Shown: one piece after another, positions 56,212-56,591 of the stretch
How positions within the stretch are numbered: position 1 is the stretch's first letter
Layout of the letters: each line of letters begins with the position of its first letter
Source: Escherichia coli
GTDB taxonomy: Bacteria > Pseudomonadota > Gammaproteobacteria > Enterobacterales > Enterobacteriaceae
Assembly (NCBI RefSeq): GCF_003019035.1
Contig: NZ_CP027447.1
Strand: one strand, 5' to 3'
DNA length: 64,000 nt
The notes under the pieces: model-generated
Seen by the model: only the letters and a program-made list of their open reading frames with translations
Databases searched by the model: none
Told to the model about the DNA's origin: nothing
Position numbers and translations under genes: made by a program

Positions 56212-56591
56212 AACAACCTCTCTTATAATTATGGGTATTCTACGGAAACAATATACCGTGGTGAAGCTAATTTACTCGATTGCTGCGATGACTACCTCCG
56301 GGGGACAAACCTTATGTAAATACTATGGTCCTGCGGTGATAATTTGTATGTGATACACAGCAACATTTCGAGATATTCATACGGCATCTAATACTGATTT
56401 AATTCTGGTTAAAATACAGACAGATAACAAGATGAATATTCTTAATGTTTACGTTAAAAATGTTTAATGTTATTTAATAGTTGTTAATTTGAATACTTCG
56501 ATAATGTTATATTTCCTGATAATCATTTGCAGGCAAAATGTTTTCACCCTTAAATGAGTATTTATTCTCATAAATCGAAAAAGGATTCATT

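Follow-up and report, generated by a model that had tools for sequence, protein, structure and literature searches.

What does the 380-bp gap between ypfM and yffB of Escherichia coli contain, and why is it so rich in A and T? The gap lies in a 64,000-nucleotide stretch of contig NZ_CP027447.1 (hereafter the window; positions count from its first letter). A preliminary description, made from the sequence, had seen in it the kind of AT-rich non-coding tract that H-NS typically binds, and had proposed that it could hold an unannotated small RNA or a complex promoter for yffB-dapE-ypfN. Here, we argue that the tract is very probably a shared control region, serving ypfM to the left and yffB-dapE-ypfN to the right by way of promoters and a conserved module, and containing no small RNA or small protein of its own. 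It is an ordinary divergent promoter region, largely already described. What is modestly new is only the module, a conserved element of fixed geometry upstream of ypfM.

Composition and conservation of the gap

Positions 56212–56591 coincide exactly with the intergenic gap. Since ypfM is encoded on the minus strand and yffB on the plus strand, the tract separates two divergently transcribed genes (Table 1). The low GC content first reported for it is borne out, at 31.3% versus 53.2% for the whole window; across the 64 kb, only 0.15% of 379-bp segments are similarly GC-poor. GC declines along the tract, from 41% (56213–56350) to 24% (56400–56591). Window positions near the tract convert to MG1655 coordinates (NC_000913.3) by adding 2,534,655, and three substitutions, with no indels, separate the tract from its MG1655 counterpart. 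In the corresponding 64 kb of MG1655, the 32 intergenic regions have a mean GC of 44.8%, and coding DNA 53.8%; there the ypfM–yffB gap ties for lowest GC and, the CPZ-55 prophage excepted, is the longest intergenic region. Of 5426 complete E. coli genomes, 5411 carry the tract (≥95% identity); it is therefore core DNA. The plus-strand open reading frame noted earlier at 56126–56353 does exist (75 amino acids, TTG start); it runs antisense to ypfM and is not conserved.

Only one other region of the window drops below 36% GC, with a minimum of 30% near 39047 (38949–39542 and 39401–41387). Two plus-strand reading frames adjoin it, one matching a group 1 glycosyltransferase and one a GINT1_N / glycosyl hydrolase 43-like domain. 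This region looks like strain-specific accessory DNA, because MG1655 has just the eutS-maeB gap there.

Table 1. Features of the ypfM–yffB tract and its surroundings (window coordinates)
Feature	Position	Strand	Details
acrD CDS	52940–56053	plus	
ypfM 3′ UTR	56053–56151	minus	two hairpins; fold z −3.56; outside tract
ypfM CDS	56152–56211	minus	19 aa, MIERELGNWKDFIEVMLRK
ypfM Shine-Dalgarno	56217–56224	minus	AAGAGAGG; nearly invariant between genera
ypfM P1, sigma-70 promoter	56237–56265	minus	TTCACC (56265..56260)-17-TAGAAT (56242..56237)
Conserved block upstream of P1 −35	56266–56292	minus	approximately ATCGCAGCAATCGAGTAAATTAGC; identity 70–75% vs 49% baseline
Conserved CA	56316/56315	minus	at predicted start ~56315; 1.2–1.4 bits
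−10-like hexamer	56322–56327	minus	CATAGT (plus strand ACTATG); conserved
Putative overlapping sigma-70-like promoter	56343–56372	minus	E. coli CTCGAA-18-TACAAA, degenerate
Conserved 22-bp site	56346–56367	minus	consensus AATATTGCTrTnnGTCACATWA, i.e. TTGC-N6-TCAC
AT-rich spacer	56379–56504		23% GC; unconstrained; includes the AT run first quoted for the tract
Predicted yffB extended −10 promoter, TGTTATATT	56505–56513	plus	TG 56505–06, TATATT 56508–13
Predicted yffB leader	56520–56591	plus	~72 nt; Shine-Dalgarno AAGGA 56581–56585
yffB CDS	56592–56948	plus	ATG at 56592
dapE CDS	56952–58079	plus	

For comparison, yffB loci were retrieved from 80 species, plus one Salmonella locus, and about 70 Enterobacteriaceae species were compared. 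The ypfM gene is conserved across the Enterobacteriaceae (its Salmonella copy is assigned Pfam PF28148), and 71 of the 80 retrieved loci have it upstream of yffB. Gap length has a median of 389 bp (range 202–1041), and median GC is 37%, versus 56% for the flanking genes. Four islands of conservation stand out: the ypfM ribosome-binding site with P1, the module at 56314–56377, the extended −10 element TGTTATATT, and the yffB ribosome-binding site. Conservation thereby reaches beyond the ypfM reading frame and the core of the yffB promoter, to which the preliminary description had allowed that it might be limited, and into the module.

As a neutral baseline we took E. coli–Salmonella identity at the fourfold-degenerate sites of yffB and dapE, which is 49%; over the whole gap, identity averages 60.5%. 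It reaches 85–95% at the ypfM ribosome-binding site and the P1 −10, 70–75% at the P1 −35 and the block upstream of it (56262–56291), 65–70% at 56312–56381, 70–75% at 56392–56421 and 70–80% at 56492–56531, and is just 40–45% at 56242–56261, 56292–56311 and 56422–56491. The AT run that the preliminary description singled out, 50 nt at 56442–56491, falls within the last of these intervals, the least conserved part of the tract.

This run belongs to a longer spacer, 56379–56504, in which the GC of E. coli is the lowest among 52 species (median 38%, maximum 55%) and whose equivalents range in length from 34 to 770 bp. Given this low conservation and the varying GC and length, the AT extreme is a peculiarity of Escherichia in an unconstrained spacer, and not a conserved feature. 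The spacer would thus be under little sequence constraint, and probably serves simply as upstream AT-rich DNA to which H-NS and other nucleoid proteins can bind. Genera with a longer distance from the module to yffB include Kosakonia, Mangrovibacter and Entomohabitans, the gaps at six such loci measuring 700–1040 bp. Repeats within the tract are just short two-copy matches, typical of AT-rich DNA. An ArcA-type array of TGTTA repeats phased at 11 bp, sought by eye in the AT run, was rejected: its copies are spaced by 6, 9, 7, 14 and 23 bp, and K-12 lacks one of them.

Promoters on either side

Genomic SELEX has identified the ypfM–yffB spacer as a sequence bound in vitro by RpoD holoenzyme, and an H-NS site is marked there; the catalogue entry reads ypfM < HNS > yffB, at map position 55.80 (PMC3946193, Shimada et al. 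2014). The sigma-70 RNA polymerase holoenzyme and H-NS thus both bind the spacer in vitro. Together with the leftward 5′ ends at 56230 and 56340 (PMC3415461) and a conserved rightward extended −10 element, the RpoD binding (PMC3946193) upholds the earlier suggestion of a complex promoter.

On the ypfM side, promoter prediction gives P1 nine of twelve consensus matches in its hexamers, and both the −10 and the −35 are kept across genera. The SELEX catalogue lists the same hexamers, TTCACC-17-TAGAAT, as the ypfM promoter (PMC3946193). In cells grown on M9 glucose, a leftward 5′ end with a 19-nt leader was mapped at 56230 (4 reads; PMC3415461 Table S1), which is 7 nt past the TAGAAT of P1. P1 is therefore a sigma-70 promoter with its start at 56230 and a leader of 19 nt. 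In the same table and medium, a second leftward 5′ end falls at 56340, with 2 reads and a 129-nt leader (PMC3415461 Table S1), and is the weaker of the two. We placed these 5′ ends on the window by exact sequence. The two ends, like the rightward end at 56682 discussed below, are all weak, because the data set averages 107.8 reads per start (PMC3415461). The conserved block at 56266–56292 is placed like an UP element or a factor site and, we infer, may act as one or the other.

Downstream of ypfM, the second hairpin of the 3′ UTR is a bidirectional terminator common to ypfM and acrD (56093..56058). The Rfam family STnc250 (RF01409) matches the minus strand here at 56053–56172, with 37.6 bits against a gathering threshold of 42 (E = 5.7e-05). 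In Salmonella, STnc250 is an Hfq-bound small ypfM mRNA of about 220 nt, and not a non-coding RNA (PMC2515195).

On the yffB side, the extended −10 element consists of a TG one base before TATATT, which matches five of the six positions of the hexamer, and no −35 is recognisable. The motif TGTTATATT is invariant in E. coli, Salmonella and two Citrobacter species, and it recurs in Enterobacter, Lelliottia, Leclercia, Silvania and others; altogether, 22 of 52 module-carrying species have it. In Salmonella, the 5′ UTR of yffB is 97 nt long (PMC5137417). This UTR begins at the 8th nt past the orthologous hexamer, one base off the textbook position, and by orthology we infer an E. coli start at about 56520–56521. 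Conservation and the Salmonella start together suggest that yffB is transcribed from TGTTATATT, starting near 56520, with an unstructured leader of about 72 nt. Table S1 of PMC3415461 (M9 glucose) lists no E. coli 5′ end directly upstream of yffB, and the text of the supplements to PMC4782308, PMC4681348, PMC7132871, PMC6131387 and PMC10268841 gives no start sites for the ypfM–yffB locus. The SELEX catalogue predicts a different yffB promoter, TTCATA-16-TTTAAT (PMC3946193), which lies at 56376–56403 in poorly conserved sequence.

Several regulators have been connected with yffB in Salmonella. MarA gives a ChIP peak in the ypfM–yffB spacer; its motif is weak (PMC10268841) and aligns to about 56395–56409, inside the AT-rich spacer. 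Expression of yffB rises 2.6-fold in a fur mutant, and a Fur site is predicted at −35 to −18 from the yffB ATG (PMC3212961). SdsR represses a yffB fusion bearing the 97-nt 5′ UTR (PMC5137417). A candidate Fur box of our own, over the predicted yffB start and elsewhere than the Salmonella site, was set aside; GATAATCATT at 56518–56527 is the core of the Fur consensus, and it matches 13 of 19 consensus positions and is conserved only in Escherichia.

A rightward 5′ end at 56682, inside yffB, has been assigned to dapE (8 reads; PMC3415461 Table S1), which suggests an internal dapE promoter outside the tract. At 56675, the last base of its −10, the present strain has C where K-12 has T (TATCGC versus TATCGT); this change could weaken the internal promoter. 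In E. coli isolate F374 (NZ_OY754371.1), an IS1A element replaces the equivalent of about 56307–56770, and dapE is intact. The loss takes in the remainder of the intergenic region together with the N-terminal half of yffB, so at least one isolate can do without yffB and most of the tract.

A conserved module upstream of ypfM

The module comprises 65 bp of conserved non-coding sequence (56314–56377). It is defined by two motifs, A[ACT]TAT (ACTATG in E. coli) and TGTGA (56349–56353). Of about 70 species, 52 have them exactly 27 bp apart; in the Citrobacter freundii group the distance is 26 bp. In an information-content table anchored on the two motifs, whose own positions score 2 bits by construction, the 14 bases between them are essentially unconserved (≤0.41 bits). 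The segments flanking the module vary freely in length, its distance from ypfM ranging from 108 to 124 bp. Conservation continues beyond TGTGA into GCAA.ATTT.GAAA (56360–56373), where GCAA.ATTT carries 1.6–1.9 bits per position, and a plus-strand TG at 56315–56316 is conserved as well. Some genera vary the pattern within the same architecture: Atlantibacter has CGTGA with the spacing kept, and in Cedecea and Dryocola TCACA is retained while the −10 beyond it, TAAAAT, is better and lies one base nearer. Fixed spacing with variable filler is the signature of an element read at the DNA level, a promoter or operator, and not of an RNA helix.

Read leftward, the module resembles a promoter that depends on an activator. 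Its TCACA would occupy −38 to −34 and the 22-bp site would be centred 41.5 bp upstream of a predicted start at 56315, and there is no −35 hexamer. Class II CRP- and FNR-dependent promoters have their dimer site centred near −41.5, as in galP1 and in FNR-activated promoters. The proximal half-site, TCACA, is a perfect CRP-type half-site, and the distal, FNR-like TTGC matches two of the four bases of the CRP core GTGA and three of the four of the FNR core TTGA. The 22-bp site does not contain two inverted CRP or two inverted FNR half-sites, as the distal TTGC fits neither well. This half is uniformly conserved and yet a poor match to either, and the factor may therefore be something else. In a comparison by eye with consensus sequences, no site for sigma-54, sigma-E, sigma-32 or sigma-28, and none for PurR, ArgR, Lrp or Cra and no marbox, fits the conserved block. 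No 5′ end at 56315 is reported for M9-glucose cells (PMC3415461 Table S1). On glucose, a CRP-dependent promoter would be off.

The same DNA can be read in a second way. A putative, degenerate sigma-70-like promoter overlaps the 22-bp site in E. coli; its form in most genera is TTCAAA-18-TAAAAT, which promoter scans of the same block return in Enterobacter and Citrobacter. The expected start of this overlapping promoter, about 56336, is close to the mapped 5′ end at 56340. The class II and the sigma-70 readings may both hold, in which case a bound factor could switch from one promoter to the other. Conservation thus points to a leftward regulatory unit with a candidate CRP/FNR-type site 41.5 bp upstream of ~56315; its geometry would be that of an activator-dependent, class II promoter, and the overlapping sigma-70-like promoter would fit the 56340 end. 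We tentatively propose that the module is an undescribed second promoter of ypfM, at which a member of the CRP/FNR family, or another factor that recognises TTGC-N6-TCAC, binds at −41.5, activates transcription and also occludes the overlapping constitutive promoter, giving a gal-like switch. This specific proposal is possible rather than probable.

Alternative readings and known systems

The alternative that survives best is that the tract is primarily a platform for H-NS silencing, its AT-richness selected so that filaments repress ypfM and yffB-dapE-ypfN. Its GC is very low (23–31%), an H-NS site was found in the spacer by genomic SELEX (PMC3946193), and two loose matches (8/10) to TCGATAAATT occur in the tract, one of them, at 56498–56507, overlapping the yffB −10 region. 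Two such matches are, however, no more than the size of the tract predicts; the window as a whole has 73, against 54 expected from shuffled sequence. Nor is there AA/TT phasing of 10–11 bp in the tract, since 64% of shuffles are at least as strong. The supposition that the tract is a typical H-NS-bound region is thus weakly supported, by its AT-richness and the in vitro mark, to which motif enrichment and A-tract phasing add little. The extreme of AT content is, moreover, specific to Escherichia, in a segment that ranges from 23 to 55% GC among 52 species and diverges at a neutral-like rate. As core genome, the tract is not foreign DNA of the kind that H-NS typically silences. Further points against silencing as the main role are that dapE is a housekeeping gene of lysine and peptidoglycan synthesis with its own internal start, and that mass spectrometry detects the YpfM protein in normal cultures. 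We therefore regard this explanation as doubtful.

A second alternative accepts the module and assigns it to the rightward operon, as an upstream activator site, UP region or distal promoter for yffB. The best-scoring yffB promoter of the SELEX catalogue directly adjoins the block (PMC3946193), a plus-strand scan of the orthologous Citrobacter sequence returns TTCACA-16-GACAAT, and the MarA peak (PMC10268841), the effect of Fur (PMC3212961) and control by SdsR (PMC5137417) in Salmonella suggest that yffB responds to several inputs. However, TTCATA and TTTAAT are poorly conserved (0.2–0.4 bits) outside Escherichia, Citrobacter and Salmonella. The distance from the block to the yffB −10 ranges from 34 to 770 bp, which is incompatible with the fixed geometry of an activator; the leftward −10-like element, on the other hand, keeps a fixed distance from the block. 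It is improbable, in our judgement, that the module serves yffB instead of ypfM.

Alternatively, the tract might have no function besides its two core promoters, and be AT-rich as unconstrained bacterial DNA drifts toward AT. The neutral-like divergence of 56422–56491, the wide variation in length and GC of the middle segment between genera, and the E. coli isolate that has lost, after an IS1 insertion, the tract from about 56307 onward along with the N-terminal half of yffB would all be expected on this account. It sits poorly with the module (56314–56377) and the block at 56266–56292, both of which exceed the fourfold-site baseline in many genera, with fixed spacing, and we consider it no better than improbable for the tract as a whole.

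It is very unlikely, finally, that the tract encodes a small RNA, or that a riboswitch, an attenuator or another cis-acting RNA element lies in a long yffB leader. The idea is favoured by the length of the gap (380 bp is long for a core-genome intergenic region), by the conserved non-coding block in mid-tract, and by the neighbouring ypfM transcript, which was first catalogued as the Hfq-bound small RNA candidate STnc250 (PMC2515195). A search of 55000–58500 against Rfam at E ≤ 1 gave no match inside the tract, and the STnc250 match lies in the 3′ part of ypfM, outside it. No terminator-like site occurs within 56212–56591, all four that were found being at 55969–56131. Four candidate transcripts were folded singly, namely the yffB leader, a long ypfM leader and the AT-rich core on each strand; none is stabler than shuffles, with z-scores of +0.28 (the yffB leader), +1.12, −0.44 and +0.63, whereas the ypfM mRNA proper reaches −3.56. 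RNAalifold finds no consensus pair among 14 yffB leaders. The fixed spacing and variable filler of the module are likewise a DNA-level signature. Across 56304–56394, no reading frame is open in most of 52 species, as a conserved small ORF would be. With neither an Rfam match, nor a terminator, nor a stable or conserved fold in the tract, the suggestion of an unannotated small RNA finds no support, and the tract probably encodes neither a small RNA nor a small protein.

Elsewhere in 55000–58500, the Rfam search returned the sub-threshold STnc250 match, terminator look-alikes, and naRNA4, a REP-like nucleoid-associated RNA, near 58300. The naRNA4 matches, on both strands at 58291–58374 between ypfN and ypfH, score 49.9 and 29.8 bits against a gathering threshold of 59.5, and are probably a REP element.

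If the tract is read as a shared control region, this part of the E. coli core genome is mapped more cleanly, a gain of little import beyond annotation. The promoter of yffB-dapE-ypfN would be set at the conserved extended −10 and not at the position in the SELEX catalogue. If the module is controlled by CRP or FNR, this would hint at when YpfM, a protein of 19 residues, is needed. There is also a caution for sequence scans, in that the most conspicuous AT-rich run is the least constrained part of the tract.

How does this region compare with known systems? The closest relatives are the type-A divergent spacers with constitutive sigma-70 promoters (PMC3946193), among which this very spacer is catalogued. 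It differs from the catalogue in one respect: the yffB promoter given there is not the element conserved across genera, and both conservation and the Salmonella start favour 56505–56513. This element in turn resembles other extended −10 (TGn-TATAAT) promoters in having TG and TATATT, no usable −35, and a Salmonella start 7–8 nt downstream; the difference is that the yffB start is mapped in Salmonella, whereas its E. coli position is predicted. Like the AT-rich intergenic regions bound by H-NS, the tract combines very low GC with an in vitro H-NS site; unlike them, it is core genome and not horizontally acquired, has no A-tract phasing, and does not keep its AT extreme in other genera. As for STnc250, the 3′ region of E. 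coli ypfM is the same locus, orthologous to the acrD/yffB locus in Salmonella, but the E. coli match is below threshold (37.6 < 42 bits) and outside the AT-rich tract. Finally, the module shares with class II CRP- and FNR-dependent promoters a 22-bp site with one perfect TCACA half, a −10-like hexamer at fixed distance without a −35, and a conserved A/T-rich stretch directly upstream of the site. It departs from them in its distal half, which is TTGC in place of the GTGA of CRP or the TTGA of FNR.
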